From assembly GCA_000995065.1 (NCBI GenBank), contig LBWX01000002.1:62586-126585 (forward strand): 64,000 nucleotides of DNA. The letters run 5' to 3'. Shown here piece by piece: positions 15,161 to 31,460 of this stretch. Numbering within the stretch: position 1 is the first letter of the stretch; each line of letters starts with the position of its first letter. The notes below the pieces were generated by a model. The model made no database searches and was not told where the DNA came from. It saw only the letters and a program-made list of their open reading frames with translations. The DNA is from a candidate division CPR2 bacterium GW2011_GWC2_39_35 (GTDB lineage Bacteria > Patescibacteriota > CPR2). Both the position numbers and the translations under genes were made by a program.

Positions 15161-15270
15161 GGTTTCTCTCCTTCTATTCTAATAAACGTTTTTTGGAATA
15201 AAGTATAAATAAGCTTCCTAGGAAGCATTAATTGGTTGGGAATGTGCATGAATAGCAAGAAATATTTGAG

Positions 15271-15545: not shown

Positions 15546-16550
15546 TATTGCTTCTTCTTTTTTACAACCTTTTTCTTTGCTATCTGAGCAGCCGAGAGTG
15601 CCGCTGTGTCAAAATCAGTGTCTAGACTTTTTGCTTCGTTTTTCTTGTACTCATCAAAATGCTTTTCCGCTGTTTCTACTGCTAATTCGTGCGATACTTT
15701 ACCAGCACTGGTTAAGATATCTCTGTCGTTTAGTTTTAAGAAGCCATGTAGTTTTTCTATCCAATCCTTCATATACATTGGCACGCGTCGCATAGCCTGG
15801 CCTTCAGCAAACACAAGATATTGCTCGACAAGGTTGTTAAGGGCAAGAAGTTCCGGCTCTGTCAAATAGTTTTTAGCAATCGTCACATCGTCTTTGCGAG
15901 GCTTCGTCCCCCGCCATGAAGTAAGTCCCATATATGGCCTTGTGCTATCGGCACGAGAACTTATAATCTCGGATGCAGTTTGACCGGTAATGGCGTAGTG
16001 GACTTTGTTTTGGACTGTTTTAAAAAACAGAATACTTGTTTCATCGGTCGGATCATAGTCAACGCTGGTCGCATAGATATCGGTGATCTTTCTGTAAAAG
16101 CGCTTTTCGGAAGTGCGTATATCCTGAATACGGAGAAGTAATTCTTCGAAATAGTCAAAGGGTAGATCTGGATTTTTAAGACGTTCATCGTCTAGCACAA
16201 AACCCTTTACGATATATTCACTTAAACGGGCAGTCGCCCATTGACGAAAAGCTGTTGCAATAGAGCTTTTAACACGATAGCCAACGGAGATGATGAGATC
16301 GCTCATTTTGAACTATTCGGAATTTCCGAATAGTTGAATCTTTGCTCAATTCTCCTTCTTGATAAATGTTCTTTATGTGTTCGTTAATGGTTGGAACGGT
16401 AACCTGAAAAAGCTCGGCCAAGAGTTTTTGCGTAAGCCAAACCGTTTCGCCGTCAAAACGGACATCGATTTTAGTTTGACCGTCTTCGGATTTATAAATG
16501 ATTAGTTGTGAGTTAGGATCATTTTTCATAATGGTAAATTCGCTTTGCAT
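15545..16550 (-). pseudogene. RhuM-family (virulence RhuM-like) gene split by a frameshift into 93-aa and 253-aa ORFs
   Basis: The N-terminal ORF (IIYKSEDGQTKIDVRFDGETVWLTQKLLAELFQ) and the C-terminal ORF (ISVGYRVKS...GFVLDDERLKNPD) together cover a RhuM-like protein. The two ORFs overlap at 16269-16306 in different frames. Confidence 0.6.
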
Positions 16551-16765
16551 TACTTTGCGCCCTCATTATACACCAGGCGTGCGTGGGCTAAAATGGTATT
16601 TTGTCGCGTTGGTCTTTTCCGGATAAAACATCATTCTTAGATTCGTATTTTTTGAAATATTTAGAGCCATTATGCTTATGTGGTGCCTAATAGATTCCTT
16701 TTGTCATTGACCGACTTATAATGGTTTAGTAAGTTGGTACTATAACAGCATAGCAAGAGGTCCAT

Positions 16766-17623
16766 ATGAAAAGCAAATCACGCCGTTATGAAATTATAAG
16801 GGAGATTGCAGTAACTACTCTGTGGTCAATCCTTGCAGGCATTCTAGGATTGTTTGTGGTGATGCTGATCGGCCTTCTGGTATTTAAAACCAAGAGGCTC
16901 CCACCCGAATCAACGTTTGTCTTTTTTGTAACCGTGTGGCTAGTTGTCTATTTAAGACTCAAAAAGAGCGGTAAAACCTTTGCAGATATAGGCCTTGGGG
17001 AAAAGGGGCTTTTTAGTCGCTCAACAATAGGTTTGCTTATCGGCGCCGGATTCATGACGGCTACCTTCGCCTTTCTTCTTTCCATAAAAGCCGTTACTTT
17101 TACAGAACACACAATTAGCTCTTCCTTAGCTATAATTCTTGTTTCAGGCCTTGCCTATAGCATGATTCAAGCTAGTGTTGAAGAAGTGTTATTTAGGGGC
17201 TATTTCTTAAATATCCTGGCCTGGAAGAATCGCCTATCAGCGATTCTTGTAACCTCTGCCTTATTTTCCTTCCTTCACTTCTGGCATGGTGTTCATCTTA
17301 TCGGCTGGCTCAACATATTCCTTTTCGGGGTGTTTGCTGCTCAATCATTTTATTTATTCAAGAGCTTGTGGGTGCCTATAGGTTTCCATATCGGTTGGAA
17401 TTACTTCCAGAAATATGTCTTCACCTTTCCGATTTATGGAAGCGATAACACAAGAGGACTGCTTGCTCTAAACGATGCAAACAAGGGTTTATTGAGTGGC
17501 GGTAGTTTTGGTCCAGAAGGAAGCATAATCATAACTCTATTGTTAGTAATGACTATTGGGCTAATTTATTGGCGACAAAAAGAAACATTAATTGCGGTAA
17601 ATCCTCGGCTTGCTCAAAACTAG
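16766..17623 (+). CDS. CPBP-family intramembrane metalloprotease (CAAX protease/Abi-like)
   Basis: EEVLFRGYFLN, FSFLHFWHG and downstream His motifs in a polytopic membrane protein. Confidence 0.8.
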   Translation: MKSKSRRYEIIREIAVTTLWSILAGILGLFVVMLIGLLVFKTKRLPPESTFVFFVTVWLVVYLRLKKSGKTFADIGLGEKGLFSRSTIGLLIGAGFMTATFAFLLSIKAVTFTEHTISSSLAIILVSGLAYSMIQASVEEVLFRGYFLNILAWKNRLSAILVTSALFSFLHFWHGVHLIGWLNIFLFGVFAAQSFYLFKSLWVPIGFHIGWNYFQKYVFTFPIYGSDNTRGLLALNDANKGLLSGGSFGPEGSIIITLLLVMTIGLIYWRQKETLIAVNPRLAQN

Positions 17624-17660
17624 CCCATTACTGTACCCTATAACCGTAGGGAGACATCAC

Positions 17661-17689
17661 AAAATGCCTTTACAGAAGGCATTTTTATG
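17661..17689 (+). terminator. rho-independent terminator of the CPBP gene
   Basis: AAAATGCCTT-tacaga-AGGCATTTT hairpin followed by TAT. Confidence 0.5.
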
Positions 17690-17713
17690 GGTTGATTGAT
17701 GCGTCGAAAAACA

Positions 17714-17790
17714 CTGGCTCCCCGGATCGGGCAATCTTCGAACTTCTGGAGCAATTATGCTTATGTGCTAGTGCCTAATAATTTGCATTT
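17714..17790 (+). repeat. composite intergenic repeat, partial copy (TTGGCTCCCCGGATCGGGCAATCTTCGAAC module)
   Basis: CTGGCTCCCCGGATCGGGCAATCTTCGAACTTCTGGAGCAATTATGC...GCCTAATAAT matches the right half of subtype B. Confidence 0.7.
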
Positions 17791-17801
17791 TTTAAGTAGC
17801 C

Positions 17802-19235
17802 TTAGGGGATAAGATTATTGATGATCTTCTCCCCTAAGAATGAATAAATGCTTCCCTCTTTGTTGAAATCTATAGAATTATCGGCTACTAGTTCTGCAAG
17901 TGTCTGTCCAACTGCTACTTCCCATGGCTTAGAGCTTCCAGTGATGCCCACTAAATCGTTCCTAATGCTTTTAATATCATAATTCATCCGGTCAAAATCA
18001 CTTTCTTTAAACCCGGACATCACCAAGAAATTAGGGTGTGCTGTGTTAACATCGAGCCAATGTTCAATACCAGCCTGAAGCGCAGCCCAATCCATTCCAA
18101 GCTTACTCAGAACCTCATCAGTTAAGAGCAAATTTTCAGCATTTCTACATGATAGCTTCAACCGTACTACGGGCAGAATGTCATCTATCGTCCCATCGCT
18201 ATCATCTCGATCTCTTAACGAATAGGCCGTTGCATTGTCATAAACGGCTTGAATAATGTTCTTAGCTTCTTGTTCATAATCGTTCAGTTCACTAATCCCA
18301 CCAGTAGGGCAAGGATATACCTTGACTCTTCCATTTGATGACCGAACCGCTTGCTGCCATATACGCTCATCGTCTTCGCCCTCGACTAATAGCAATGGGG
18401 CTTCATTAAAAATGTTCGATAATGGATGTGCTCCAAAAACCGGCAGAATGCTTCTGTATACAGGAGTAATTGGTTTAAATTCTAAGCAGGTTTGCCCTGA
18501 CTTCATGAATGCGATATGAGCGTTATGTTGAGACTCTAGAGCCCCTAAAATTGCTGTACTATGTGTTGACAACACAATCTTAAATGCATTTTCTTCAACC
18601 AAATTTATAAGAAAATGCATTAGACGTACTTGCAAGTCTGGATGTAAATGAACGTCGGGCTCGTCAAGAAATAACATATTGTCTTTGTTCGGCACACATT
18701 CTTTGCTGAAAACTAAGCATTCGATACCTAAAGAGATTAATTCACTTTCCCCGCTACTAATCATCCCGGCATTAAGTTCTGTGTCATCTCCCTTTTGATA
18801 GATTTTAAAAGTGGTATCATCTCTCGCAATCCTGATATTATCAAGCAAGTCATTGATTTTATCTACATAAAGGTCAAATGTATAAGCATGATCGCTTCTT
18901 TTGCCTCTCTCTATCTCTCTTAATATCAACGTTTCCAACTTCCTGTACTGCACTACGCTTTGCTGTCTGAATTGGTTATATTGATTATTTCTACGGGTAT
19001 CGGGTAGCCATGAGGGGCTATCTGTTAAATTTTGTTCAATACCGGCTTCATAAATTAAGGATCCGCCTCGTTCGGGCGTTATATATTTAGCTTTACCAAA
19101 AGCAGGATTATTCGAAAGAAGGTTCTGCTCTACTGTTCTTATTAGCCTGCTCTTGCCACATCCATTTTTGCCGAGAACAATGTTAACGTTATTTAGATTT
19201 ATTAAGCTGTAACCACTGATATTAATAATTTCCAT
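17802..19235 (-). CDS. OLD-family ATP-dependent endonuclease (N-terminal ABC-like ATPase plus C-terminal TOPRIM), class-1-like and stand-alone
   Basis: Walker A (GKNGCGKSRL), Walker B plus H-loop (LFLDEPDVHLHPD...LSTHS), and a C-terminal TOPRIM-like LLLVEGEDDE. Confidence 0.75.
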   Translation of the reverse strand: MEIINISGYSLINLNNVNIVLGKNGCGKSRLIRTVEQNLLSNNPAFGKAKYITPERGGSLIYEAGIEQNLTDSPSWLPDTRRNNQYNQFRQQSVVQYRKLETLILREIERGKRSDHAYTFDLYVDKINDLLDNIRIARDDTTFKIYQKGDDTELNAGMISSGESELISLGIECLVFSKECVPNKDNMLFLDEPDVHLHPDLQVRLMHFLINLVEENAFKIVLSTHSTAILGALESQHNAHIAFMKSGQTCLEFKPITPVYRSILPVFGAHPLSNIFNEAPLLLVEGEDDERIWQQAVRSSNGRVKVYPCPTGGISELNDYEQEAKNIIQAVYDNATAYSLRDRDDSDGTIDDILPVVRLKLSCRNAENLLLTDEVLSKLGMDWAALQAGIEHWLDVNTAHPNFLVMSGFKESDFDRMNYDIKSIRNDLVGITGSSKPWEVAVGQTLAELVADNSIDFNKEGSIYSFLGEKIINNLIP

Positions 19236-19374
19236 AATTTCTCCATATTACTTGACTGTTTCGTCATCATCTAGTCCCTTGACTTAATCGTTATCTAAGA
19301 CATGTTCATTATACAGCAAACAGTTGTTCGATTATAGTTTAACAAAGCGGTTATGGACAAACGCTATATTAGCC

Positions 19375-19620
19375 AAATTTCAATGATTTTAGACCCCGGA
19401 TCGGTCAATCTTCGAACCAAAAAAATGGCTGTTCAGAGCCATTATCGATAAATTGGGTTATTTTTGGTCCAATCTTTTCCAAAAATTCGAACCGATATTT
19501 TAGCTCTACAGAGCCCTAAAACAGGCTAATTTACAGATTCTACCATATTGGCTCCCCGGATCGGGCAATCTTCGAACTTTTGGAGCGTTTGTGCTTATAT
19601 GCCAGCGCTTAATACTAAAT
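19375..19620 (+). repeat. composite intergenic repeat, full copy of subtype B
   Basis: Contains TTCAATGATTTTAGACCCCGGATCGGTCAATCTTCGAACC, the hairpin AATGGCTGTTCAGAGCCATT and TTGGCTCCCCGGATCGGGCAATCTTCGAACTTTTGGAGCG...GCTTAATACTA. Confidence 0.75.
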
Positions 19621-19625
19621 AAGAA

Positions 19626-20666
19626 CTAAGGTTTTTCAACCCTATCAATCATAAACTTAACTGTTTCATTCATATTGATTGGCTTTATAACAATATCCGG
19701 ATGTTTTGATTGAAACACTCTAAATATTTCATCAGCAAATGCCTGACCGATTGTAGGCACTTTGTCGAAGTCTAAAATTATAACCTTAAATTTTGACAAA
19801 TTTACCGTTACTCTTCTGGCCTGCGACCTTGAAACATAAATAGTACCCATGGCATATAGTTTGATTCTGATTTCTGTCTTATCAAAAGCCATTTCTTCCG
19901 AATCCGTTTGATATTTAGCAAAAACATCGCTGAGATGTTTCCCTGATTCGACTGAAATAGTAAACGTTACCCTAGTTCCTTTTTTGGCAGGCTTTATATC
20001 TTCGACAAAAACATCATTTATTAGATTATCTATTCTTAGCCGATATTCAAAACTATCCAAAACAAAGATATCTGCCGCTTTTGAAGTAAAAAAGATACCC
20101 TCGCCCGAATGAGCTTGAGGCGCCGTTGTTGTTTTGCCTTTTAAAAGATCCTGAATTGCTTCCAGTTCGGATTTTAAGCCTCTCTTTTTCATAATGTTTC
20201 TAAAAACCCCAATGCCAGAGTCCGAGATGGTAAACTTTAAATTATTATTCTCTTTAATAACTTCTATGTCGATTTCTGAAGACAGGGAATGCTCAATTGC
20301 ATTATTAAGCATCTCTGAAAACGCGAAAGTAAAGATGCTTAAAACATTCTCGGTTAGCTTGCCCAGGAAAGGCGTTTGTTTTTGGATTCGATCTAAAATC
20401 TCATGTTCCTGCAAATTAACATTTTTAAGTCTGATGTGGGTTCTATTTCTTAAAAGATCCGCATCCCGAGGAAGCGCATATTCGGTAAAACGACCGCCTC
20501 CAGAACGAATGAGTTCACCCTTTTGGACCAAGTCCTTTAATATCGAGGTAATATATTGCCTAGAAACCTCTATGTCTAAATTCGCTAAAATATCAGAAAG
20601 ACCAAGTTTTCCTTTTACATGTGCGACATTAAATATTGTTTGTGTCACTTTTTTCTTAATATCCAT
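19626..20666 (-). CDS. wHTH plus GHKL (histidine-kinase-like) ATPase plus C-terminal STAS-like (DUF4325-type) domain protein
   Basis: A winged-helix-like N-terminus, GHKL motifs (NNAIEH, DSGIG, GEG) and a C-terminal STAS-like fold (VIILDFDKV...). Confidence 0.55.
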   Translation of the reverse strand: MDIKKKVTQTIFNVAHVKGKLGLSDILANLDIEVSRQYITSILKDLVQKGELIRSGGGRFTEYALPRDADLLRNRTHIRLKNVNLQEHEILDRIQKQTPFLGKLTENVLSIFTFAFSEMLNNAIEHSLSSEIDIEVIKENNNLKFTISDSGIGVFRNIMKKRGLKSELEAIQDLLKGKTTTAPQAHSGEGIFFTSKAADIFVLDSFEYRLRIDNLINDVFVEDIKPAKKGTRVTFTISVESGKHLSDVFAKYQTDSEEMAFDKTEIRIKLYAMGTIYVSRSQARRVTVNLSKFKVIILDFDKVPTIGQAFADEIFRVFQSKHPDIVIKPINMNETVKFMIDRVEKP

Positions 20667-20703
20667 ATGAATCCTTCTTATTGTACGACTATTATAGTAT
20701 AAC

Positions 20704-20756
20704 GTAAACTCAATGTAAACAACAATATTTTCAATGTAAACTCAATGTAAACTGAG
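20704..20756. promoter_or_regulatory. CAATGTAAAC direct repeats (3-4 copies) upstream of the HTH-GHKL-STAS gene, putative operator iterons
   Basis: AAACTCAATGTAAAC...TTCAATGTAAACTCAATGTAAACTGA lies immediately upstream of the gene start at 20666. Confidence 0.45.
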
Positions 20757-20772
20757 GTTTTTTAGAGAAGTA

Positions 20773-20822
20773 AGGATCGAACTTTTGGAGCAGTTGTGCC
20801 TTTATGCAACTGCTTAATATAT
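20773..20822 (+). repeat. composite intergenic repeat, partial right-end copy
   Basis: GGATCGAACTTTTGGAGCAGTTGTGCCTTTATGCAACTGCTTAATATA matches the right ends of the subtype-B copies. Confidence 0.6.
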
Positions 20823-20935
20823 TATAGCCAAAGCCCTCTTTAAAAGAAACGTCCCCAGTATCAATAAATCAATACTGGGGACAGCCCCGCAAACCCTTAT
20901 GATGTTTTCTACCGCAGAAGGATGGAAGCGACCGA

Positions 20936-21472
20936 TTATTTTCGTTTTGCAAAGAACCTGTTCATTAGCCGGGTAAAAGTCCCTTGGTATTTTATAAGGT
21001 CCTTCTTGTCAATGCTCCACTGATCTTGCCCATCGACTGCAAAAGCCGCAATTTGGACATTGGGATAAAGCCTTACCCATGTACGCCGCCGAAGGTCTTG
21101 CGTTGACTCGATCACCTTTTTGCCTTCAACAAACCCTTCGGTTGATTGCAAGCCTGCATCTGTAAGCGTGATTTCGCGTCGTGTGTGCTCTGTGCCAATG
21201 GTTTCATCGAAGTAGAGCTTTCCGAAAGACATCTGAGAATCGCTTTCCCAAAAACGGTCTGACATGGTTGGCTCTAAATCGGGAACGAGCGCTTCCATCA
21301 GGGCTTGAAGTTTTTCGGCATCGTAGATACCTTGCTTAGGAGCCACATAAATATCAAACGTGTGGCTAAAGCCATTTTTGCCCGGCAGATAGTTGCTCTC
21401 CTGTATTTCCACGATCTCGATGTCCTTGTTTGCCTTTAATGCTTCCTGAACATGCGATGTTTTACTTTTCAC
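20936..21472 (-). CDS. hypothetical protein
   Basis: A 178-aa ORF. Confidence 0.4.
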   Translation of the reverse strand: MKSKTSHVQEALKANKDIEIVEIQESNYLPGKNGFSHTFDIYVAPKQGIYDAEKLQALMEALVPDLEPTMSDRFWESDSQMSFGKLYFDETIGTEHTRREITLTDAGLQSTEGFVEGKKVIESTQDLRRRTWVRLYPNVQIAAFAVDGQDQWSIDKKDLIKYQGTFTRLMNRFFAKRK

Positions 21473-21739
21473 CTTATTTCCTCCTTAACTGGCTCGCTAG
21501 GCGAGAATCCTACTTTTCCCTTGATGCAACAATCAAGCAACAGTTTTTATTACCTGGTTATTGCATCAAGAAATAAAACAAAAGGATTAATCTATATCCC
21601 AGCTACCTGAGGAATAAAGAGAAGTGTCAGTTCTGAAGTAGAAACTTTTGATGCAGGTTCTAAAGGGGCATCGAAATAAACAAGTGTTTATTTGACGCTT
21701 TATATTATCATAAAAACGTATTTTAGTCAAGTATCTAAA

Positions 21740-21905
21740 GGTTGGGTTCAAACCATTGAGTTGGCTTGGCAAAGCAAAAAAACAGGCTTATGGTTCGAAT
21801 CCTATCCGGGGTTTACTTTTCCACATACTAAAAAATGCCTATCTAAAGGCATTTTTCCAGATTTTTACATTGGCTCCCATACAAAAACGTGTTTAGAACT
21901 TTGGA
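21740..21905. repeat. tRNA-fragment-like repeat region containing an inverted GACCCCGGAT-type module and a TTGGCTCCCA module
   Basis: GGTTCGAATCCTATCCGGGGTTTAC is the reverse-complement homolog of GACCCCGGATCGGACTATCTTCGAACC. TTGGCTCCCATACAAAAACGTGTTTAGAACTTTGGATTGGGAG resembles 4199-4250. There is no complete tRNA cloverleaf. Confidence 0.5.
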
Positions 21906-22008
21906 TTGGGAGAAGATTGCTGAAGAATTAGAAATATTTCAAAGAATATCGCAATTTCAATTACAAAAAAATTAACATTCAAAAATTTCCTGCTAGATAA
22001 AATATGTC

Positions 22009-22413
22009 TTATCTTTTAGCTGAAGAGACTTTAAAAGTAGAGTGGTCTATATCAAATGCGAAAAAGAAAGCCATTCTATCATCGTTAGATAACCCAAAAA
22101 TAATTTTAAAAGCGCTTTTCCCATAGTCTACCCTAAAGAGATTCTTCTCATATCCGAACAAATTGACTAGCCTTTTACCCTCTTTGCTATTTGGCCTAAC
22201 CGGTTGAATGTCCGCCCCAACGCCTTTACTTTTTAGCTCCAATAAGCTTTCTGAGTCTATCAATGCGGAAATTAAATTTTTAACCTTAATAACGTGGGTA
22301 TCATCTAGATAAAGCTTTTCAACCGGAAAATGAGAATATTTATAATTAGAAAAACAAGGGAGAAAACCACGCTTTGCCATTTTATATATCGTTACTTTTA
22401 AAGTAGCTACCAA
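22009..22413 (-). CDS. putative toxin, RelE/ParE-like
   Basis: A 134-aa ORF downstream of and overlapping the Panacea-domain gene. The segment FRVDYGKSAFKIIFG resembles the RelE/ParE core. Confidence 0.35.
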   Translation of the reverse strand: MVATLKVTIYKMAKRGFLPCFSNYKYSHFPVEKLYLDDTHVIKVKNLISALIDSESLLELKSKGVGADIQPVRPNSKEGKRLVNLFGYEKNLFRVDYGKSAFKIIFGLSNDDRMAFFFAFDIDHSTFKVSSAKR

Positions 22414-22834
22414 TCTCAGCTTTCGGTATAATATTATTTTCCCCTTCTTGATAAAACTTATTCCAAGGCGTATTTGGCTTATGGGTTTGTTTTACTAAAA
22501 AAGAAGCAGAAAACTTACCAACATCTTCCCAAATCTTATTTAGAAAATCACCTAGTTGTTGGGATATATTTTGCGGTTCGGCAGGAACATCAAAAACAGT
22601 AATGGGGAAATTCCCACAACTTTTGAATGCACTATAAACATTTTTAACAACTGGGCCTAAGGCCCAAGCCTCTATTTCTTCATCAAAAATAGGATTCTTG
22701 TATTGAGCGATATATTTACCTTGAGCAAAATAAAGAAGCTTTTGAAGCTTTAAGTTTGTCAAATCGTTCTCGTCTATATGGCTTGCCAATACCACAAAAT
22801 AATTAGCTATGTCGATTGCATTTACTTTATCCAT
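22382..22834 (-). CDS. Panacea-domain (DUF4065, SocA/PanA-like) putative antitoxin
   Basis: KLQKLLYFAQGKYIAQY...EAWALGPVVKNVY matches the DUF4065/Panacea signature. Confidence 0.6.
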   Translation of the reverse strand: MDKVNAIDIANYFVVLASHIDENDLTNLKLQKLLYFAQGKYIAQYKNPIFDEEIEAWALGPVVKNVYSAFKSCGNFPITVFDVPAEPQNISQQLGDFLNKIWEDVGKFSASFLVKQTHKPNTPWNKFYQEGENNIIPKAEIGSYFKSNDI

Positions 22835-22977
22835 TTTTGTTTCCTCTACTAAAGCTTATTCTTATTAAATAATAATGCTTGTCTAATAAAATTATACTTT
22901 ATTATAGGAAAGATTTACAGAAATTCTATAATGCTATAATAATAACTAATAAGAATTAAATAAAGAAGTGATGAATT

Positions 22978-23766
22978 ATGTCTGACGAATTTAATGAAGG
23001 GCGATTTTCCGATGAGGAGCTAAAAGAATATGAAAAGATACATCAAATATATTTTGATAACAAGGGTTTTCAGAAAATGTGGAATTACTTTTTGGATATC
23101 ACCAAGAAAGAATACTTTAACGATGTTATAAAAGAGCTAAGAAAAAAATACGAAATTCCTCCGAACGGTTACAAGCCAGATGAAGACGGTTGCTATCGTT
23201 TTCCTCCACGAAACACAATTTTTGAAGACAATTTTCAAAAAGAACTAGCCCTTCGAAATGAAATAATCGAGAAAATATGTCGTAAATATCAACTTCATAA
23301 TTTCGATTTTTCTGACGTAGTGCTTCGTTATGTTTTTTATAATTATATTGAGTTATCAAACCAACTTGGAGCTTGCGGATTATTTATAGTATCCGATGTT
23401 ATTAAAGAAAAAGAAGACCCATTTAGTGAATTTGTTCAACAAAGCGATGATATGGCTTATCCTATTGCCATAAGAATAAGCCCTTATGCTAGCCAAAGAG
23501 ATTTAATTGATTTTATAAAAAACAAAATTGTTTGGAAAAAAGAAATTGAATTTTTGCAAAACAAATATAAGGACAAAAATATAAAAATTGGTAGAGTTAA
23601 AGCCAAAAACCAATCGACTCAGGAACGAAATGACTTTATATACCAAAATAGAGATAAAACATTAAAGGAGGTTAGGGAGCTTCTAGCCGATAAAAATATA
23701 TTCTTAGACGATGGACATATTGCAAAAATAATATCGCTTGAGAAGCAAAAAAGAAAAGAAGTGTAG
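22978..23766 (+). CDS. hypothetical protein
   Basis: A 262-aa ORF and the first gene of the co-directional block 22978-31427. Confidence 0.4.
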   Translation: MSDEFNEGRFSDEELKEYEKIHQIYFDNKGFQKMWNYFLDITKKEYFNDVIKELRKKYEIPPNGYKPDEDGCYRFPPRNTIFEDNFQKELALRNEIIEKICRKYQLHNFDFSDVVLRYVFYNYIELSNQLGACGLFIVSDVIKEKEDPFSEFVQQSDDMAYPIAIRISPYASQRDLIDFIKNKIVWKKEIEFLQNKYKDKNIKIGRVKAKNQSTQERNDFIYQNRDKTLKEVRELLADKNIFLDDGHIAKIISLEKQKRKEV

Positions 23767-23978
23767 TGCACAAGAAATGATATGTAACACATAAAGCTCT
23801 TATACTTATTTTTATCTATGAAATAACCTTTGGAATATAAGGTTATTTTTTATTTTAAAAACTATGGAAGAAACAAAGAGCGACAGATTAACAAACGAAA
23901 AACTTGAAGCCAAATACAATTTGACTGGCTTTTTTAAGTTGCTCTTAGAAATTGATATGAGAGTTAACCCACATTTAT

Positions 23979-24239
23979 ATGAAAATAACGGAAATACAAA
24001 TTATCCCGATCAAAGCAAATAACGGCTTAGTTGCCTTTGGCAGTGTTGTTATTAACGATAGCCTATATTTGGCTTCTATTGGGATACACAAGAAGAGAGA
24101 TGGGAGCGGTTATAGGATTACCTACCCCACTAAGAAAATCGGCAATAAAGATATGAATATTTTTCATCCAATCAATAAAGAAACAAGCAAACTAATTGAG
24201 GACGCAATAATATCAAAGGCTAAAGAAATATTAAATTAA
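23979..24239 (+). CDS. spoVG: SpoVG-family protein
   Basis: MKITEIQIIPIKANNGLVAFGSVVINDSLYLASIGIHKK..FHPIN aligns with SpoVG (MEVTDVRLRRV..GRMRAIASITLD..FVVHDIRVI....HPIN). Confidence 0.7.
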   Translation: MKITEIQIIPIKANNGLVAFGSVVINDSLYLASIGIHKKRDGSGYRITYPTKKIGNKDMNIFHPINKETSKLIEDAIISKAKEILN

Positions 24240-24271
24240 TTTAAAAATGTATTTAAGAAAAAAGTAATGAA

Positions 24272-25414
24272 ATGCTGGATACCATAATCTTACAAATTCA
24301 TATTGATAAGTGCTTTATGATTGACTTTAAAATGTTTAACACAACTAAAGAAGAAGTGTTTAATACGAAAACGTCATTTAAAAAATGGATGAATAATCCA
24401 ACGGCACAGGATAAAAAAGATGGGATTTATAAGCCTAGGCTGACGCTAATTAAAAGAGGTAGGGTATTTACTATAACGATTGAATTTTCTGCTCCAAAGA
24501 TAATTTTTAATAATAACTTAGACGAGTTAGAAGAAACTAATTTTGATAACGTTGTTAAAACATTACAGGAACGAATGAAAAGTATGGGAGTATGGATTTT
24601 GACGCTGAACATTGAAGAAGCTGATGTTTTATCTTTTCACCCGTCAAAAAACATAGCACTAAGCGGAGGCTATACGGCAAGTTTTGCAATAAGGGAATTA
24701 AGAAAAATAGATTTAAGTAAAAGGTTTGATCTTGACGAAAAGAAATTTAGAAATGGCGAAATTTTGCAGTTATATACCAAATCTCATTCCTTTGTTCTTT
24801 ACGATAAAATCAATGACCTTAAAAAACCTAAAAGCAGAGCAACAGACAAAGACCGGACACCTCAACAAATAGATTTGTTTGAATATATTCAGAAGGAAAA
24901 CAAAAGACTTGAAGTGTTGAGGCTAGAAGTAAGATTAAGCTCAAAACGAAAAATGAATGAACAATTGGAAAAACTGGGATATGCCCCAAATCCTCCGTTC
25001 AAAGAGATCTTTAAACAAGAATTATGCAAAAAAATTATTAACCAATACTGGAATGATTTTTTTAGCGACAACCAATTTATCTTTAACATCAATAGTAACC
25101 CACAAGATATATTACAGTTGATACTTCGGAGGTATCCAAAGATAAAAATTATAAAAGCTATCAATATTGTTGGCCTTTATTCGCTTTGTAGAGATGAGGA
25201 AGGAATGAGAGGATTTAGAAAAACAATTGATAGCCATAAACCCAAAAGCAATTGGGATACGGTAAAAAAATATATCAAGATGCTTGATGATGAAATTTTT
25301 GCTAATCCTACTTGGAAATTTATACCGGAAATAAAGCAACAAATTGATCGCTTTGAACCTTTTCGCACAGATAATTTATCCACAGAAAATGATTTGATGT
25401 GTAAAGAAAAGTAA
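24272..25414 (+). CDS. hypothetical protein (possible replication/initiator-like protein, guess only)
   Basis: A 380-aa basic protein with no confident motif match. The function is inferred from context only. Confidence 0.4.
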   Translation: MLDTIILQIHIDKCFMIDFKMFNTTKEEVFNTKTSFKKWMNNPTAQDKKDGIYKPRLTLIKRGRVFTITIEFSAPKIIFNNNLDELEETNFDNVVKTLQERMKSMGVWILTLNIEEADVLSFHPSKNIALSGGYTASFAIRELRKIDLSKRFDLDEKKFRNGEILQLYTKSHSFVLYDKINDLKKPKSRATDKDRTPQQIDLFEYIQKENKRLEVLRLEVRLSSKRKMNEQLEKLGYAPNPPFKEIFKQELCKKIINQYWNDFFSDNQFIFNINSNPQDILQLILRRYPKIKIIKAINIVGLYSLCRDEEGMRGFRKTIDSHKPKSNWDTVKKYIKMLDDEIFANPTWKFIPEIKQQIDRFEPFRTDNLSTENDLMCKEK

Positions 25415-25441
25415 AGTATAGTTTTATTTAGGTGTTATTAT

Positions 25442-27538
25442 ATGAACGAAGAATTTTATACAGCCCAAGAGCTAGCCGATAAACTAAAAGTCAATATAAT
25501 GACTATTTATAGGTATATTAACTCTGGGAAATTGAATGCTTATAAAACAGGCAAGGATTTTAGGGTTTCTAAAGAAGATTACGAAGTATTCCTAAAAAAT
25601 AAGCAAAGAAATTTGTTAGAAGAAAAAAATAACCAGATTTTGCAACTCTCCAAAGAGATTGAAAAGCTAAAAAGTAACATTAAAAAGCAAAGGTATGGAT
25701 TGGTTTGGGTAGATGTTCCGGAAGCTTTTGAGGACGATGTTGAAAATAAAATACCTATCCTTAAAGAAGAAAAATCTCTTGCTATTGAAAATAATGACGA
25801 TAAACCAACCCATCTTTTAATTGAAGGTGACAATTATCACGCCCTGACTTGCTTGAATTACACGCATAAGGGCAAGGTTGATGTAATCTATATTGATCCC
25901 CCCTACAACACGGGGAATGACGGATTTAGATACAAAGATAAGCGCATCCTTGATAAATACCCAGACGGAACAGATGTCCCCAAAGATAGCCCCTACAGAC
26001 ACAGTTATTGGTTATCATTTATGAAAAAGAGAATTGAGTTAGCAAAAACATTACTAACGAGCAATGGTGTTATGTTTATTTCAATCGGAAATGACGAAAT
26101 TGCACAATTGAAACTACTTTGCGATGAAATATTCGGGGAAAAAGATTCTCACAATATAATTCACTGGAAGAAGAACCAAAAACCACAGAACGCTTCGAAC
26201 ACAATTTCCGAATCTGCTGAGTATGTTTTAGTATATTTCAACGAGAAGCCTATTAAACTCGTTAGAGGTATGAAGGGAACAAGAACTGATGAAAGAGGTT
26301 CTTTTAAACCCTCTCCTCTCTTCACATTTGATGACAGAAAGAGAAGAACACAAACCGTGCCTAAAGGGACTCCAATTGAGTGCAAGGTATGGAAAAAGGG
26401 CAAACTTCAGGCAGTTAGGAATAAACTTGCCTATCTTAATATCCTTGATGAACCAATTATCAAAAATGGCATTCTGCAGAACGATGTAAGAGTAGATGGT
26501 CAGTGGAGAAAAACGGATACAAATGGTGAGTTTCAAAAAGTAGTAGAAGACAATCGCTTATTCGTTAACTCCAACGGCTTCCCAAATGAGAAGTCTTATC
26601 GTGACGAAGACTCTAAAAATGTTAATACCAATCTATGGCTTAATGCTGGCTATAATGAACTTGGAAAACAGTTATTAGATGAGATTTTAGGGCAAGACAA
26701 TGTTTTTCCTTATCCCAAACCCATAGAACTTATAAAAGAAATACTGAGATCAATAAACAAGCAAGATGCGATTATGCTCGACTTTTTCGCTGGTTCTGGA
26801 ACTTCAGGACACGCGCTATTAGACCTTAACAGAGAAGATGACGGCAAAAGACAATTTATATTAGTCACGGATAATGAGAACAACATAATGTCAGAAGTTT
26901 GCTACCCACGGATAAGAAATGTGATAAATGGATATGATTTTTCTGGAAAAGAGAAACAAGTCCTATTTGAAAAGACACTTACACTTACCGACCTAAAGAA
27001 AGCCGATGCTATATTGGAAGAAATTGACGGTATTACCAAAGAAAACGAAGAGTCAAAGAGGTGGGACAAGATTTCTAAGTCTATTAATGACGGCTTACTA
27101 AAGATGGTCGGAGAGAAGAACATTGAAGATAAGAAGGGTGGTCTTGGCAACTCCGTTAAGTTCTATAGGGCAGATTTCGTAGGTGAAAATAACATAATGC
27201 ACTCCACTGACAAAGATAAGTTAGAGTTAGCCTATAATGCTGGGGAATTATTAGCCATTGCAGAGAATACCCTCTATGAACAAAAGAAAAACCAATACTA
27301 TCAAATTTTTAAAGATAAAGATCGTTTTACTGCCATTTACTTCAGAGAAGAAATGGATGAATATGACGAGTTTATTGAAGAAGTTCGGGGCATTCGGGGT
27401 AAAGAAATCTCTGTTTATGTCTTTAGCTGGGAATCAGACGAGTCTATTTATGAGCTTGAGGACTTGAAAAATGTTCGAATAAAAACCATTCCTCAGCCAA
27501 TAGTAGAAATTTATAAACAAATTTATAACTTGATATAG
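25442..27538 (+). CDS. DNA methyltransferase (Type III Mod-like, beta-class N6A/N4C) with an N-terminal excisionase/MerR-type HTH
   Basis: N-terminal HTH (YTAQELADKLKVNIMTIYRYINSGKL), motif IV (DPPY, within VIYIDPPYNTG) upstream of motif I (DFFAGSGTSGHA). Confidence 0.8.
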   Translation: MNEEFYTAQELADKLKVNIMTIYRYINSGKLNAYKTGKDFRVSKEDYEVFLKNKQRNLLEEKNNQILQLSKEIEKLKSNIKKQRYGLVWVDVPEAFEDDVENKIPILKEEKSLAIENNDDKPTHLLIEGDNYHALTCLNYTHKGKVDVIYIDPPYNTGNDGFRYKDKRILDKYPDGTDVPKDSPYRHSYWLSFMKKRIELAKTLLTSNGVMFISIGNDEIAQLKLLCDEIFGEKDSHNIIHWKKNQKPQNASNTISESAEYVLVYFNEKPIKLVRGMKGTRTDERGSFKPSPLFTFDDRKRRTQTVPKGTPIECKVWKKGKLQAVRNKLAYLNILDEPIIKNGILQNDVRVDGQWRKTDTNGEFQKVVEDNRLFVNSNGFPNEKSYRDEDSKNVNTNLWLNAGYNELGKQLLDEILGQDNVFPYPKPIELIKEILRSINKQDAIMLDFFAGSGTSGHALLDLNREDDGKRQFILVTDNENNIMSEVCYPRIRNVINGYDFSGKEKQVLFEKTLTLTDLKKADAILEEIDGITKENEESKRWDKISKSINDGLLKMVGEKNIEDKKGGLGNSVKFYRADFVGENNIMHSTDKDKLELAYNAGELLAIAENTLYEQKKNQYYQIFKDKDRFTAIYFREEMDEYDEFIEEVRGIRGKEISVYVFSWESDESIYELEDLKNVRIKTIPQPIVEIYKQIYNLI

Positions 27539-27543
27539 GTAAT

Positions 27544-29922
27544 ATGAAACAATTTAATCCATTACAATTTCAGAGAGAAACAATCGATAAGTTATCAGAT
27601 ATTTTTGTTAAGTTATGGAAAGAAGACGGAAGAGCACTGCCTATTGTTTTAAAATCGCCTACTGGTAGCGGGAAGACTTTTATGGCTGCAAATTTAATTC
27701 GCAGCTTAAACCACCTTCCACAATGGCAAGAAGAAAAATCATTTATTTGGATCACGTTTAGTGACGATCTCTCTATGCAAAGTAAAAAGAAATTTGAAGA
27801 GTATTTTGAGAATAACCTTGAAAACAATTTGTTAACTGTAAATGAAATCAACAAGGGAAAGTTATCTAATAATGACATTATATTCCTTAATTGGCAAAAG
27901 ATAGTTTCTAAGAGTGCCGAAACTAGAGTATTAAGAAGGCCTGACGAGGAGATTATGCGAAAAGAGAAAGGGGCGTATTGGGAAGATTTTATTGATGGAA
28001 CTCAGGCCGATGAGAGGGAGATTATTCTTATTATTGATGAAGCCCATAAAAACAAAGGCACAACATTGGCTAAAGAGGTAATTGACTACATAAATCCTAA
28101 GATAATTCTGCACGTCACTGCCACCCCCAGTAAAGAAGATGCATTGGAAGCATATGAGCTTGGATCGATGATAAATGTTGATAGGAAAGAGGTTGTCGAA
28201 GAAGGATTGATTAAAGAAAAGATTGTCATTCAAACGGAAGAAGATCTTGAGAGGCATCAAGGGCAAGATTTTGATAAAGTCCTGCTTGATCTTGGAATCC
28301 AGAAAAGAAACGAACTAAAAGAAGAGTTAAAGTCTCTAGGTAAAGATATTAACCCTTTGATGCTTATACAATTACCTAATGATGACAATAAATTGATCGA
28401 GATGGCTAAGGAAACTAAAGAGTCTGTTGTTTGTGATTACTTAAAAGAAGTTGGAATCCCTGAAACAAAAATTGCTAAATGGTTTGATGGTAGACAGGAA
28501 AATATGGATTTAATAACTGAAAATGATAGTGACGTTGAAGTTATGTTATTTAAACAAGCGGCTGGGACTGGTTGGGACTGTCCCAGAGCCTCCGTCCTCA
28601 TAATGTTTAGGGAGATAAAATCAAATACATTTTATACCCAAACAGTTGGCCGAATATTAAGAATGCCTGAACCTGAATTAAAAGAGGATTATAAGAATAA
28701 CGAAAACTTGAGAACTGGTCATTTATATACCAATTACAAGCGTAATGAGGTTGAAATACCAGACCAATCAGCAAGGAACAAACCTTTTGTCAACTTTTCG
28801 AATATTAAAGAAGGCGTAAAAAATATTTCGTTACAGTCAGAGTATATTTCTCGAGTTGATTATGGAGACATCCCAAGATCTTATAAATTTCAAAAAGGCT
28901 TTATTGATTCGATGAATAGATATTTTGGTATAACGCAGGATGATATTTTGGGAAAAGCTCAAAGGAAATTAGAGAATAAGGGAATTGATTTAGATGGAAA
29001 GCTAACGAACCAGATTATTGTAAACGCAAAATTTGAAGATTTTGATCATTTGAATTATGAATTTAGTAAACAAGGTAAGGATCTTGAAATTGAAATGTCC
29101 ACTAATGATGTTGAGAAAACTTTTAATTATATCTGCTATCAACTTTTGCAGGAGCAAGACAACGAAAAAGCAAAATACACGAATATTGCAAGATCTTGGA
29201 GCACTATTAAATCGGCGATAAGAGTCTGGCTAAACCATACAGTTAGCGAGAATAGCGACCATTTTTATAGAATTTTTGTTAAGGACATAAATAAAGGTGC
29301 TTCAAGCAAATTTAGACCAGCAATAACACAAGCCTTGATTGACTTTAAGCCATTATGTGAACAAATAATCAACGAAAGAAAAGTTGCTCACGAGCAAAAG
29401 GAAGCACCTATTTTTTCTATTCAAGGTCAATATTCTTTCACTGAAGATTACGAAGAAATATCCCAGAAGATTTGCGCTCTCGGCAAATTTTATCTACCTA
29501 AAAAAGATTTTAAAGGAAAAAAGAACGAATTAGACTTTAAGGATTATATAGATAACCTAGATGATTCAATTGATTGGTGGTTTAAAAATGGAGATTATGG
29601 CAAATCTTATTATGCAATTAAATATTTTAATTCAACCGACAATAAGGAAGCTCTCTTTTATCCTGATTGGATAATTTTATTCAAAGATGGACGAATTGGG
29701 ATTTTTGATACCAAAGAGGGAGAAACTGCCAAATCTCAGGAGACTAAAGATAAAGCAGGCGCATTAGCACAAAAGTTAAATGATTTTGGATCTGGCTATG
29801 TTGGCGGTATTGTAGTTAAAGTTTCCGGAATCTGGTATTACAACGACACTTCAAGTTATGATTTCCGAGACGGTAATATTGAGCAAGATAAAAATTGGAA
29901 GAGATTTGAAGAGCTCTTATGA
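27544..29922 (+). CDS. Type III restriction enzyme Res subunit (SF2 helicase plus C-terminal PD-(D/E)xK nuclease)
   Basis: Helicase motif I (PTGSGKTF), motif II (IIDEAHKN), motif III (TATP), motif VI (QTVGRILR), and a C-terminal PD...D-x-K (YPDWIILFKDGRIGIFDTKEG). Confidence 0.75.
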   Translation: MKQFNPLQFQRETIDKLSDIFVKLWKEDGRALPIVLKSPTGSGKTFMAANLIRSLNHLPQWQEEKSFIWITFSDDLSMQSKKKFEEYFENNLENNLLTVNEINKGKLSNNDIIFLNWQKIVSKSAETRVLRRPDEEIMRKEKGAYWEDFIDGTQADEREIILIIDEAHKNKGTTLAKEVIDYINPKIILHVTATPSKEDALEAYELGSMINVDRKEVVEEGLIKEKIVIQTEEDLERHQGQDFDKVLLDLGIQKRNELKEELKSLGKDINPLMLIQLPNDDNKLIEMAKETKESVVCDYLKEVGIPETKIAKWFDGRQENMDLITENDSDVEVMLFKQAAGTGWDCPRASVLIMFREIKSNTFYTQTVGRILRMPEPELKEDYKNNENLRTGHLYTNYKRNEVEIPDQSARNKPFVNFSNIKEGVKNISLQSEYISRVDYGDIPRSYKFQKGFIDSMNRYFGITQDDILGKAQRKLENKGIDLDGKLTNQIIVNAKFEDFDHLNYEFSKQGKDLEIEMSTNDVEKTFNYICYQLLQEQDNEKAKYTNIARSWSTIKSAIRVWLNHTVSENSDHFYRIFVKDINKGASSKFRPAITQALIDFKPLCEQIINERKVAHEQKEAPIFSIQGQYSFTEDYEEISQKICALGKFYLPKKDFKGKKNELDFKDYIDNLDDSIDWWFKNGDYGKSYYAIKYFNSTDNKEALFYPDWIILFKDGRIGIFDTKEGETAKSQETKDKAGALAQKLNDFGSGYVGGIVVKVSGIWYYNDTSSYDFRDGNIEQDKNWKRFEELL

Positions 29923-31427
29923 AAGCAATAATCTTGGCCAGAGTTTCAACTGAAGAACAAAAGGAAGCAAATCACTCATTGCCAGCCCAATTAATAAGAT
30001 TGCAGAAATACTGCCAAGAGAAAAAACTGGATGTAGTTAAGGAATTTAGTTTTGACGAATCGGCTTGGAAAACCGAAAGGCAGCAGTTTGAGGAAATTGT
30101 TGAAATGCTTCAAAAATCAAAGGAAAAGATGGTTTTGTGTTGTGATAAGATTGATCGTTTAACAAGAAGCTTTAGTAAAGAATTAGTTACTCTAGAGGAT
30201 TTAAGAAGAACTGGCAAAATTGAACTACATTTTCCTTCTGATAATATCGTTTTGCATAGAGATTCACCTGCCACCGATTTATTTAGATTTACGATGGGCG
30301 TAAGCCTTGCCAAATACTATTCCGATACTACAAGCGATAATGTCAAAAGAGCCAACGAAACTAAAATTAAAAATGGCGAATGGGCTGGCTGGGCTCCAAT
30401 TGGCTACATCAATACAGAAGACGAAAAGGGTAATAAAGATATAGAAGTTGATGAGATAAGAAGCCCCTTTATTATAAAAATGTTTGAGCTATATGCTTCA
30501 GGTAACTATTCAATGAGGCAAATTAAAGAACAATTGGACAAGGTAGGACTAAAAAGCAAATCAAAAGACCCAAAACCCTTAACCATAAGTATGGTAAAAC
30601 ATACTCTAAACAACCCGTTCTATTACGGAATAATGAGGATTAAAGGCGAATTATATCCTCATAAATACCCTCCGCTAATTACTAAGCATTTATTTGATAA
30701 GGCCCAAGCGGTTAGTGCCGGATGGCATAAAAAACCCTTTAAATATGCCGCTAAGCCCTTTGTTCTTCGAGGCATGATAAAGTGTGCTGATTGCGGTTGC
30801 ACAATCACCCCTGAGACCTCTAAGGGGCATGCATATTACAGTTGCACCAACTATCACAGGATTCATCCAAAAAGGATTTACGTCAAAGAAGAAGACCTTT
30901 TAAAACAAATCTATGAAATTTTGGATAATATTCAATTAACAGACGAGCAAATAAAAGAGTTAACCGAGGACTTAAAGCAAACGAACAAAGCTGAGAACCG
31001 TTTCTTTAAGAACAGCGTTCAAGAATTATGGAAAGAATACAATAGATTTGAAAATCGTATTAGTAAGCTCACGGATGAAAAATATGACGGTAGTATTACT
31101 GAGGATTTCTACAACAAAAAGTTTAAGGAATATACTGAAAAACAATCTAAAATGATGGAAAGTATAAACAAACATCATAAGGCTAATCAAGAGCATCATA
31201 TTACTGCAAATAGTATCTTAAACCTTGCCAAACGAGCTCGTGAAATATTTGAAAGTTCTGAACCGGCAGAAAAAAGGCAATTATTAAATTACATACTTCA
31301 GAACCTAGAATTGAAGGACAAAAAACTCTTATATAAAGCAAAAACACCGTTTGATACGATGCTTTTGATACATGATAGTTCTAACTGGCTCCCGGGGTCG
31401 GATTCGAACCGACGACCAATTGGTTAA
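29919..31427 (+). CDS. large serine recombinase (resolvase-domain integrase)
   Basis: N-terminal resolvase catalytic region (AIILARVSTEEQ), a recombinase domain, a zinc ribbon (CADCGCTITPE...YYSC) and a coiled-coil C-terminus. The ORF overlaps the Res gene by 4 nt and runs into the tRNA-Asn gene. Confidence 0.85.
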   Translation: MKAIILARVSTEEQKEANHSLPAQLIRLQKYCQEKKLDVVKEFSFDESAWKTERQQFEEIVEMLQKSKEKMVLCCDKIDRLTRSFSKELVTLEDLRRTGKIELHFPSDNIVLHRDSPATDLFRFTMGVSLAKYYSDTTSDNVKRANETKIKNGEWAGWAPIGYINTEDEKGNKDIEVDEIRSPFIIKMFELYASGNYSMRQIKEQLDKVGLKSKSKDPKPLTISMVKHTLNNPFYYGIMRIKGELYPHKYPPLITKHLFDKAQAVSAGWHKKPFKYAAKPFVLRGMIKCADCGCTITPETSKGHAYYSCTNYHRIHPKRIYVKEEDLLKQIYEILDNIQLTDEQIKELTEDLKQTNKAENRFFKNSVQELWKEYNRFENRISKLTDEKYDGSITEDFYNKKFKEYTEKQSKMMESINKHHKANQEHHITANSILNLAKRAREIFESSEPAEKRQLLNYILQNLELKDKKLLYKAKTPFDTMLLIHDSSNWLPGSDSNRRPIG

Positions 31428-31460
31428 CAGCCAACTGCTCTACCACTGAGCTACCCGGGA
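31386..31460 (-). tRNA. tRNA-Asn (anticodon GTT)
   Basis: Minus-strand sequence TCCCGGGTAGCTCAGTGGTAGAGCAGTTGGCTGTTAACCAATTGGTCGTCGGTTCGAATCCGACCCCGGGAGCCA folds into a cloverleaf with GTT in the anticodon loop. Confidence 0.85.

Follow-up and report, generated by a model that had tools for sequence, protein, structure and literature searches.

The large serine integrases of phages and integrative and conjugative elements (A118/LI, phiC31, Bxb1, SPbeta, TP901-1) have three domains, a catalytic serine, a short identity at the crossover and a 5-bp shift of the recognition motif between attP and attB, and these features recur, the last of them for one pair of half-sites, in the locus described here, in which the gene of a large serine recombinase (LSR) runs into tRNA-Asn(GTT) within a 64,000-nucleotide stretch (the window, within which all positions are counted) of a candidate division CPR2 (Patescibacteria) groundwater genome. 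The present protein differs from these integrases in its target, the 3' end of a tRNA, and in its sequence, which is so distant that the only sequence match in PDB is the catalytic domain of TP901-1 (E 1e-4). We know of no characterised phage LSR system in which attP lies inside the integrase open reading frame (ORF). Of the 297 serine-integrase elements covered by a 2020 survey of integrative elements, 14 lay at t(m)RNA genes; the survey stated that the use of tRNA genes by serine integrases was unreported and would need proof. The DNA between positions 21871 and 31385 (9,515 bp) belongs to a known kind of mobile DNA, the integrative elements driven by an LSR; with high probability, it is best explained as an integrated small plasmid-like element whose attP lies inside its own LSR gene and whose attB is the 3' end of tRNA-Asn.

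Integrase genes that carry attP in their ORF and are partitioned on integration, as here, are known from the "suicidal" integrases of the SSV type; SSV1 integrates into a tRNA gene. These enzymes have been stated to occur exclusively in archaea and are tyrosine recombinases, whereas the protein in the window is a serine recombinase. Their gene is split into two large inactive parts, whereas in our locus the last 34 of 523 codons are detached and the catalytic and DNA-binding domains remain together. In the integration-dependent immunity of mycobacteriophages, the split gene is reportedly that of the repressor and the integrase a tyrosine recombinase, whereas here it is the serine recombinase gene itself that is split. 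BPs, Brujita and the cluster P mycobacteriophages are reported to carry attP in the 3' end of a regulatory ORF, whose protein has different C-termini in the free and integrated forms, as is the case here. The small serine recombinases of the phiRSM type, from filamentous phages of Ralstonia, also integrate at a tRNA gene, which is said to be that of tRNA-Ser; they are resolvase-sized, have neither a Recombinase nor a zinc-ribbon domain and are borne by inoviruses, and no split gene has been reported for them. The 2020 survey cites them as a small clade of integrases.

The literature that we searched, with little coverage of subscription journals, held nothing relevant on tRNA-targeting serine recombinases in Patescibacteria, on attP inside a serine integrase gene or on suicidal integrases outside the archaea, and the attP-spanning layout, common to dozens of related elements, has apparently not yet been described. 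With this family, self-splitting would no longer be confined to archaea and tyrosine recombinases: it would reach bacteria and the serine superfamily, in a milder form that swaps a tail instead of destroying a gene. Three uncommon features are documented family-wide: targeting of tRNA 3' ends, attP within the recombinase gene, and a compact backbone that shuttles restriction-modification (R-M) systems in bacteria of the candidate phyla radiation.

The element stands against the intact gene of tRNA-Asn(GTT) (31386-31460, minus strand; ARAGORN, Rfam tRNA 74.5 bits), which has an encoded CCA and forms an attB half-site. Its GC content is low (0.334, compared with 0.397 in both 10-kb flanks), and ~8.5 kb separate it from the dnaA-rpmH-rnpA-yidC cluster. 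The host is taken to be CPR2 because a protein search returned exact matches of the LSR, of the cargo methyltransferase Mod and of a 380-aa protein of the element to proteins of CPR2 metagenome-assembled genomes (MAGs). The boundaries are an 8-bp direct repeat, TGGCTCCC, present on the plus strand as a distal junction core (21871-21878) and as an identical tRNA-proximal junction core (31386-31393), the latter being the antisense of the last eight nucleotides of the tRNA. By itself this 8-mer is weak evidence for a boundary, as it occurs 10 times in the window against 1.35 expected, a number that no shuffle reached. The copy at 21871 continues into a family-conserved motif, core-N13-TTYMGAAC, which five of the ten copies fit and for which no match is expected in the window, and we judge this boundary decisive because the sequence after it reads, in the recombinase frame, WLPYKNVFRTLDWEKIAEELEIFQRISQFQLQKN and then a stop codon. 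An earlier sequence-only reading of this DNA had already proposed an LSR-driven integrative element with the 3' end of tRNA-Asn facing it, which our results support, together with two candidate attachment sites on the left. The one at 21858-21905 holds the true distal junction. The other, at 20773-20822, was ruled out: the core is absent from it, and it is merely an 84% partial copy of a 43-nt repeat at 19572-19614.

In its integrated form the LSR has 502 aa (29919-31427, plus strand), 489 encoded by the element and 13 by the antisense of the tRNA; the reported overlap of the 3' end of the ORF with tRNA-Asn measures 42 nt, and the TAA stop overlaps the anticodon. We regard the ORF as a bona fide LSR because of its Pfam domains (PF00239 Resolvase, 5.5e-22; PF07508 Recombinase, 1.5e-13; PF13408 Zn_ribbon_recom, 2.1e-09) and its catalytic set, R8, S10, D79, R80 and R83, which is invariant in an alignment of 30 family sequences, as are C289, C292 and C309 of the zinc ribbon. 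The sequence-only reading had recommended profile searches for the recombinase domains and had named a missing catalytic serine region as an argument against itself; all three domains were matched, and the region is present. The AlphaFold model has long helices at 342-446, a predicted coiled-coil within the zinc-ribbon region. The public annotation of the protein, and its best NCBIfam match, is CcrB of SCCmec, also a large serine recombinase, whose target and element type differ from those found here; this identity was rejected, and the LSR is not a Ccr protein, because its score is 110.8 bits against a cut-off of 900.

A conserved helical stretch of the recombinase, LPxxxxFRTLDWxxIxxEL, is left 9.5 kb away at the distal end of the element, as an orphan tail exon of 34 codons and a stop (21871-21975, plus strand) that opens with WLPYKNVFRTLDW and is translated in the LSR frame. 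Judging from the two reading frames, excision would join this exon in frame to LSR codon 489 and rebuild an enzyme of 523 aa; homologues of the exon are contiguous with the LSR in P0009 and in the self-closing contig L180. In the mechanism that we propose, the LSR would recombine attP, in the 3' end of its own gene, with attB at the terminal nucleotides of tRNA-Asn, and integration would swap the last 34 LSR codons for antisense tRNA, in which reading would stop at the anticodon. Our analysis supports the overlap of ORF and tRNA as a family-wide outcome, arising because attP lies inside the recombinase gene.

The uninterrupted arrangement occurs in a relative of the element. The two ends of contig L180 (8,759 bp) share an exact direct repeat of 127 bp, those of contig L181 (8,657 bp), an independent assembly of another data set, one of 25 bp, and both contigs close to the same 8,632-bp circle, which carries an LSR 73% identical to ours with an uninterrupted tail, a SpoVG gene and a homologue of the 380-aa protein. 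The attP of this circle, GTTCGAAC-TTGCTCCC-GATTAAGCACGTGTTTAGAAC, is collinear with the attP reconstructed from the two ends of the window element. Whether circle or tandem, an attP-type junction with an intact gene exists in nature. The contigs L192-L194 (8.6-9.1 kb), tried as further self-closing forms, were rejected as linear integrated fragments.

Metagenomic relatives of the LSR number in the thousands. In 49 of the best 120 metagenomic homologues the C-terminus is a T-arm-antisense peptide, for example LPGSDSNRRPIG or LRGQDSNLQPS, in which, read as antisense tRNA, W is TGG, the complement of CCA, and DSN is GAT TCG AAC, the T-loop; 45 stop no more than ~4 codons from the core, and 12 go on as ...LPxxxxFRTLDWxxIxxEL... 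or with a shorter xRT tail. A survey with one genome per species yielded 79 loci, mostly from Patescibacteria and some from MAGs labelled otherwise, which together with the window gave 81 LSR copies. The antisense of a tRNA 3' end called by ARAGORN adjoins 54 of them (Asn 33, His 11, Gln 5, Arg 2, Leu 2, Trp 1) and tRNA-like sequence that ARAGORN does not call a further 11; six copies run off their contig and ten have xRT-type or other tails, so that a tRNA or tRNA-like 3' end adjoins 65 of the 75 assessable copies. In the five loci that we checked, all without an ARAGORN call, a group I intron interrupts the tRNA that adjoins the LSR (Rfam RF00028, 74-93 bits; L015 10592-10864, L021 2282-2502, L027 11531-11768, L030 11507-11787, L036 4552-4802), and these introns account for the recurrent "...PIGYTYP..S" protein tails. 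The intron-bearing tRNA, seen in several Patescibacteria, is apparently tRNA-Asn, with the intron in the anticodon loop. The repeat at the ends of the elements differs with the tRNA that is targeted (Asn, TGGCTCCC; His, TTGGGGTG; Leu, TGGTGCCC), and the part common to the Asn-targeting elements narrows to GCTCC, core positions 3-7.

The detached exon also recurs: 34 orphan FRT(L/V)(D/N)W exons were found at the left ends of elements, upstream of the recombinase gene and on its strand, each preceded by unrelated sequence or in-frame stops, and those loci that include the tRNA junction as well imply an element length of 4.7-11 kb. These exons stay open for a median of 33 codons, compared with 10 in control frames, and 73% of them are open for at least 30 codons, compared with 7% of the controls. 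From codon 11 onward, the nucleotide entropies at the three codon positions are 22.2, 16.2 and 25.8, the second position being the most constrained and the third free, and W13, I16, E19 and L20 are conserved. Such a pattern is the signature of translated sequence, and it extends past the ~25-bp att half-site. Sister elements with 91% LSR identity stand in tandem arrays with other LSR elements, the recombinase gene of one running straight into the tail exon of the next (L001/L195), and L009 and L043 are arranged alike. These arrays suggest that a new element enters at the junction nearest the tRNA and that attB needs little specificity in its non-tRNA half. The upstream LSR lies at 533-2080 in L001, 6046-7593 in L195, ~1-879 in L009 and ~680-2245 in L043; it belongs to another family in L001/L195 and L009, and is a second copy of the same family in L043. 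In L009 and L043 it enters the tail-exon region in the WLP frame, in L001 in a different one, and the upstream element of L195 carries RadC, Replic_Relax, HTH_3 and an M78 peptidase.

The geometry of the attachment sites agrees in part with that of characterised serine integrases. TTCGAAC, the T-loop motif, is found a second time in the arm of the element, 5 bp farther from the core than in the tRNA: the P' arm holds TTTAGAAC (21892-21899, plus strand; +22 to +29 from the core start), and the attB half-site holds the T-loop antisense ATTCGAAC (31402-31409, plus strand; +17 to +24), both being candidate motifs for the zinc-ribbon domain. The seven-codon spacing between core and motif is fixed in 34 of 34 tail exons, and the spacing on the tRNA side is set by the structure of the tRNA. 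Rutherford et al. (2013) located the zinc-ribbon motif at bp 16-24 in attP and at bp 11-19 in attB, and this 5-bp inward shift in attB is the accepted basis on which serine integrases discriminate between attP and attB. We infer a crossover at core positions ~5-6, inside GCTCC, because the distances of Rutherford et al. (2013), when applied by analogy to the motifs in the window, fall there. It would lie within the discriminator and first acceptor-stem positions (tRNA ~70-74), and a crossover at this place would preserve the whole tRNA sequence. The acceptor stem and T-arm of the tRNA would then act as one attB half-site, with TTCGAAC of the T-loop as the likely motif of the zinc-ribbon domain. 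In this model the enzyme would read the near-universal T-loop, which would explain the movement of the family among six tRNA species. Targeting of tRNAs throughout the clade runs against the view that serine integrases avoid tRNA genes, and the T-loop as recognition motif would explain how they are used; a short target present in nearly all tRNAs, with a possibly self-limiting reaction, is also of interest for genome engineering.

Integration leaves the tRNA with LSR codons downstream of its 3' end, and 19 nt past that end there is a terminator-like hairpin of 12 bp with a U-run (31339-31367, minus strand, that of the tRNA), encoded within the LSR codons KTPFDTML. Most close relatives keep it, with compensatory changes that also alter the peptide, and family-wide the increase in pairing is modest (64% of cells, compared with 57.5% in shuffles and 34-49% in slid controls). 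We read this hairpin as a subclade feature that may replace the displaced terminator of the tRNA, in which case the last LSR codons encoded by the element would supply, on their opposite strand, a substitute terminator.

Several observations weigh against the reading given above. In principle, a tandem repeat instead of a free circle could underlie the self-closing relative; the shifted shared motif and the 8-bp common core are seen for the P' and B half-sites, and the remaining two arms show no convincing symmetry; RNAalifold, applied to the sequence that follows the tRNA in 48 loci, found no family-wide consensus structure. In the AlphaFold model of the full-length LSR the tail is helical, with a moderate predicted local confidence (pLDDT ~66-76), and the model gives no docking information; in a minority of relatives (L001, L045, L046) the tail is shorter and of another kind, keeping nothing but the xRT/GAAC motif, from which it follows that part of the tail conservation acts at the level of DNA. 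One may accordingly ask if the tail is a functional part of the protein at all, or if it is conserved through its overlap with the P' arm of attP, and perhaps a promoter, with the continuity of the ORF being incidental. The most invariant feature is indeed the TTYMGAAC motif at its fixed distance from the core, which is also all that the short unrelated tails of some relatives keep, and the integrated forms tolerate arbitrary tRNA-encoded tails, often of 3-4 residues; against this stand the conservation as far as codons 13-20, that is, 37-60 nt from the core start and past the half-site, the constraint on second codon positions and the excess of long open exons over control frames, and we hold a purely DNA-level tail to be rather unlikely. 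The role that we favour, and infer, for the tail is one specific to the free form, such as competence for integration, or stability; integration would then be difficult to undo. Far less credible is that the overlap of ORF and tRNA and the 8-bp repeat are coincidental and that the recombinase is just an ordinary neighbour of the tRNA, for instance an invertase or resolvase serving the R-M system. The weakness of the 8-mer repeat taken alone and a weaker DNA-invertase match in PHROGs would fit it, but 65 of 75 assessable relatives, at six tRNA species, repeat this frame and junction, the tail exon recurs at the other end, the protein carries integrase-type Recombinase and zinc-ribbon domains, and no inverted repeats flank mod or res, so that we give coincidence hardly any weight. 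We also consider it very improbable that the element is a prophage remnant or phage satellite instead of a plasmid-like integrative element. PHROGs does match the integrase, the excisionase-like helix-turn-helix (HTH) domain, the methyltransferase and the helicase, but Pfam and PHROGs found no capsid, terminase, tail or lysis genes in the 9.5 kb, related elements of 4.7-11 kb have the same small backbone, and the LSR family is absent from the 2.9 million contigs of IMG/VR, where only relatives of 27-29% identity were returned and phage origin was rejected on that ground.

The anatomy of an integrated element with a split LSR gene would also be compatible with a fixed chromosomal island of R-M and toxin-antitoxin genes that arrived by LSR integration and is now locked in or decaying, its truncated recombinase being unable to excise it, and this copy may no longer be mobile. 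About 40 contigs of the same population carry the element, with matching context in 16 and 21 contigs, and an empty tRNA-Asn site or attP junction was found in none of these ~40, a further point against a mobile element; every contig with the exact LSR, the right-flank protein, the left-flank protein or purD either has the element integrated or breaks off at the tRNA. Junctions were also sought in two metagenome scans, one with a degenerate 44-mer for attB, attP, attL or attR and one for the attP of the lineage, and both gave 0 matches, a silence that is uninformative because integrated junctions were absent too and the collection evidently lacks this population. Fusion of the Xis-like gene to mod, possibly disabling its function, and the view that archaeal integrases split by integration cannot excise would fit a locked-in island as well. 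On the other side, no ORF is broken, and the orphan tail exon remains open and conserved. The end of L098, the C-terminus of P0124 and the end of L194 stop exactly at the att core, as would be expected if assemblies branch where a population is heterogeneous. Weighing these points, we regard a locked-in island as a real possibility, though below even odds. The sequence-only reading had held that a block conserved at this tRNA in all relatives without a direct repeat would speak against it: the element is fixed in the sampled population, but the direct repeat exists, and in other Patescibacteria this position of the tRNA is occupied by different elements.

To the left of the integrated element, further copies of the core form an array. 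All ten copies of TGGCTCCC are on the plus strand (4198, 5342, 10219, 11670, 13749, 15479, 17715, 19549, 21871 and 31386) and divide ~27 kb into nine segments, with a recombinase in the last only; the other eight (4198-21870, plus strand), bounded by core copies, are 1.1-4.9 kb long. They carry hypothetical genes, a small group of metabolic genes (aldo-keto reductase, EamA transporter, hydrolase), purD, which makes up one segment alone, and RhuM with an Rce1-like protease. The core at 4198 opens another FRxLDW-type tail exon (WLPIKNVFRHLDWNQIRDEF...), and four cores share a different arm that reads WLPGSGNLRTF and has TTCGAAC at the attP-type spacing. The left and right arms fall into families that are combined as a mosaic, the same right arm preceding the cores at 11670 and 13749 and different left arms following them, and this is exactly what recombination at the core would produce. 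The right arms of the segments are unlike the LSR element's own arm, and the type-4 arm occurs only in loci of the same population. In 54 family loci, which reach 10 kb upstream of the tRNA, there are eight core copies on the same strand and none on the opposite strand. Cassette shuffling was tried as a further line of evidence: contig L201 (JGI 3300025309), from a strain variant, is 100% identical to positions 6967-16301 of the window and diverges at 16302, with a 227-aa gene in place of the Rce1-like gene, and this breakpoint is not at a core, so no movement of segments was demonstrated.

By analogy, the array may be likened to the accretion seen in islands of tycheposons, the small cargo elements with a replication module that stand by tRNA genes of Prochlorococcus, in tandem with partial tRNA repeats as here; in those islands successive integrations push older elements outward, leaving the partial repeats behind. 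Of 937 tycheposons, 910 use tyrosine recombinases, and their repeats are typically ~40 nt, whereas the window element has an LSR, a repeat of 8-11 nt, and a different phylum and backbone; Pfam found none of the tycheposon hallmark genes (tyrosine recombinase, primase/helicase replication module) in the element or the array. A wider proposal, which we put forward tentatively and think more probably wrong than right, is that a large clade of Patescibacteria serine recombinases reads the universal T-loop, uses loss of a regulatory C-terminal helix as an integration-dependent switch of activity or direction and, acting in trans on cassettes that have no recombinase and share the terminal core, builds integron-like arrays at tRNA genes, of which the nine segments described above, with that of purD among them, would be an example. 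If true, it would be a bacterial serine-recombinase counterpart of the archaeal "suicidal" integrases that hops between tRNA species.

Other features of the array deserve mention. The right end of the adjacent cassette probably includes a palindromic, terminator-like hairpin (21831-21856) that stands 13 nt beyond the distal core; right arms similar to this region precede the cores at 15479 and 19549. Just beyond the element, at 21785-21815 (plus strand), there is a fragment resembling a tRNA 3' end, GGTTCGAATCCTATCCGGGGT, in the orientation opposite to tRNA-Asn and called by neither ARAGORN nor Rfam. The regions 19380-19620 and 20748-20825 hold a cluster of degenerate repeats resembling tRNA 3' halves (copies A-D), in which the distance of TTCGAAC from the acceptor-like end exceeds that in a true tRNA by 5 nt; hairpins like an anticodon arm are present as well in copies A and B. 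Among the genes of the array are RhuM, which is defence-associated (15545-16306), an AAA_15/AAA_21 ATPase (17802-19235) that matches several PADLOC models of defence ATPases (AriA, PtuA, GajA), and a protein with HATPase_c and a STAS-like DUF4325 (19626-20666).

Within the element, the ORF list and Pfam agree with the co-directional block from 22978 to 31427 described in the sequence-only reading, which comprises a 262-aa protein, SpoVG, the 380-aa protein, a protein with HTH_17 and N6_N4_Mtase domains, a ResIII helicase and the LSR. The 262-aa backbone protein (22978-23766, plus strand) has no family match in Pfam, PHROGs or NCBIfam; homologues are found in 12 related loci, in nearly all of them upstream of the homologues of SpoVG, where present, and of the 380-aa protein. 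The SpoVG-like nucleic-acid-binding protein (23979-24239, plus strand; Pfam SpoVG 4.5e-11, 43.2 bits against a cut-off of 29.6) has a homologue in 18 related loci, directly before the 380-aa gene. The 380-aa hallmark protein of the backbone (24272-25414, plus strand), a candidate Rep_trans-like rolling-circle initiator or relaxase, was matched by nothing in Pfam (including PF02486), PHROGs or NCBIfam, and PDB gave no match to it in a profile search or in Foldseek. On the basis of a possibly Rep-like fold it may be a rolling-circle Rep, which would replicate the excised circle.

The next gene encodes the HTH-Mod fusion (25442-27538, plus strand), residues 1 to ~62 of which are an Xis-like HTH_17 and the rest a beta-class Type III Mod, with DPPY at 152 ahead of FAGSG at 449, the beta-class order (PF01555 6.8e-35; PADLOC MTase_III 1.5e-80). 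The profile search of this protein that had been recommended matched both HTH_17 and N6_N4_Mtase, and the fusion noticed in the sequence-only reading is real; the HTH, however, is not the methyltransferase's own and corresponds to a conserved Xis-like gene of the backbone. Homologues of the first ~60 residues are present in 48 related loci, mostly directly after the 380-aa gene. In 46 related loci the HTH is not fused to mod and is mostly a stand-alone ORF of 57-65 aa, or up to 121 aa in a few, and it is fused only in the window, L001 and L025. In L005, L009 and L056 a separate mod starts a few nucleotides after the HTH gene in another frame, and in L012 a single stop codon lies between the two. 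HTH-Mod is thus particular to this lineage, in which the Xis-like gene of the backbone has been joined in frame to the first gene of the cargo, and the HTH domain is a candidate directionality factor or regulator; phiRv1 Xis is a precedent for excisionase-type directionality factors of serine integrases. Among assemblies of the same population, Mod is called as 527 + 174 aa in L084/L096 and as 641 aa without the HTH in L095/L187, which suggests frameshift variants, possibly from phase variation or assembly error.

The res gene starts 6 nt after mod and, as had been noted, overlaps the recombinase gene by ATGA. It encodes a Res-like superfamily 2 (SF2) helicase (27544-29922, plus strand) with GSGKT at 41, DEAH at 165 and a PF04851 match of 1.7e-22; a nuclease-like PD...DTK motif, spotted by eye, stands at 707 in its C-terminal part. 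The earlier assignment of a Type III R-M system as cargo holds for Mod and for the SF2 helicase directly downstream, whereas the match of Res to the PADLOC model REase_III is weak (2.6e-18) and covers the helicase part only (residues 161-381). At the distal end, a SocA/Panacea-domain antitoxin (22382-22834, minus strand; Pfam PF13274 1.8e-17; NCBIfam SocA 87 bits, below the cut-off of 190) is overlapped by a 134-aa ORF (22009-22413, minus strand), a putative toxin partner by position only, which has no family match in Pfam, NCBIfam or PADLOC. A cargo made up of a Type III-like R-M system and a putative Panacea toxin-antitoxin pair is supported by these results. The element family is widespread in Patescibacteria, and the relatives carry R-M systems of Type II or Type III, or other genes, in the slot that separates the HTH gene from the LSR. 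To our knowledge, few mobile elements have been described in bacteria of the candidate phyla radiation, and this compact backbone, with a cargo slot often occupied by R-M systems, looks like a main vehicle of defence genes among them. One of the related element-bearing loci, L036, also contains a LOOT RNA (Rfam RF03000, 96.5 bits) at 964-1087.

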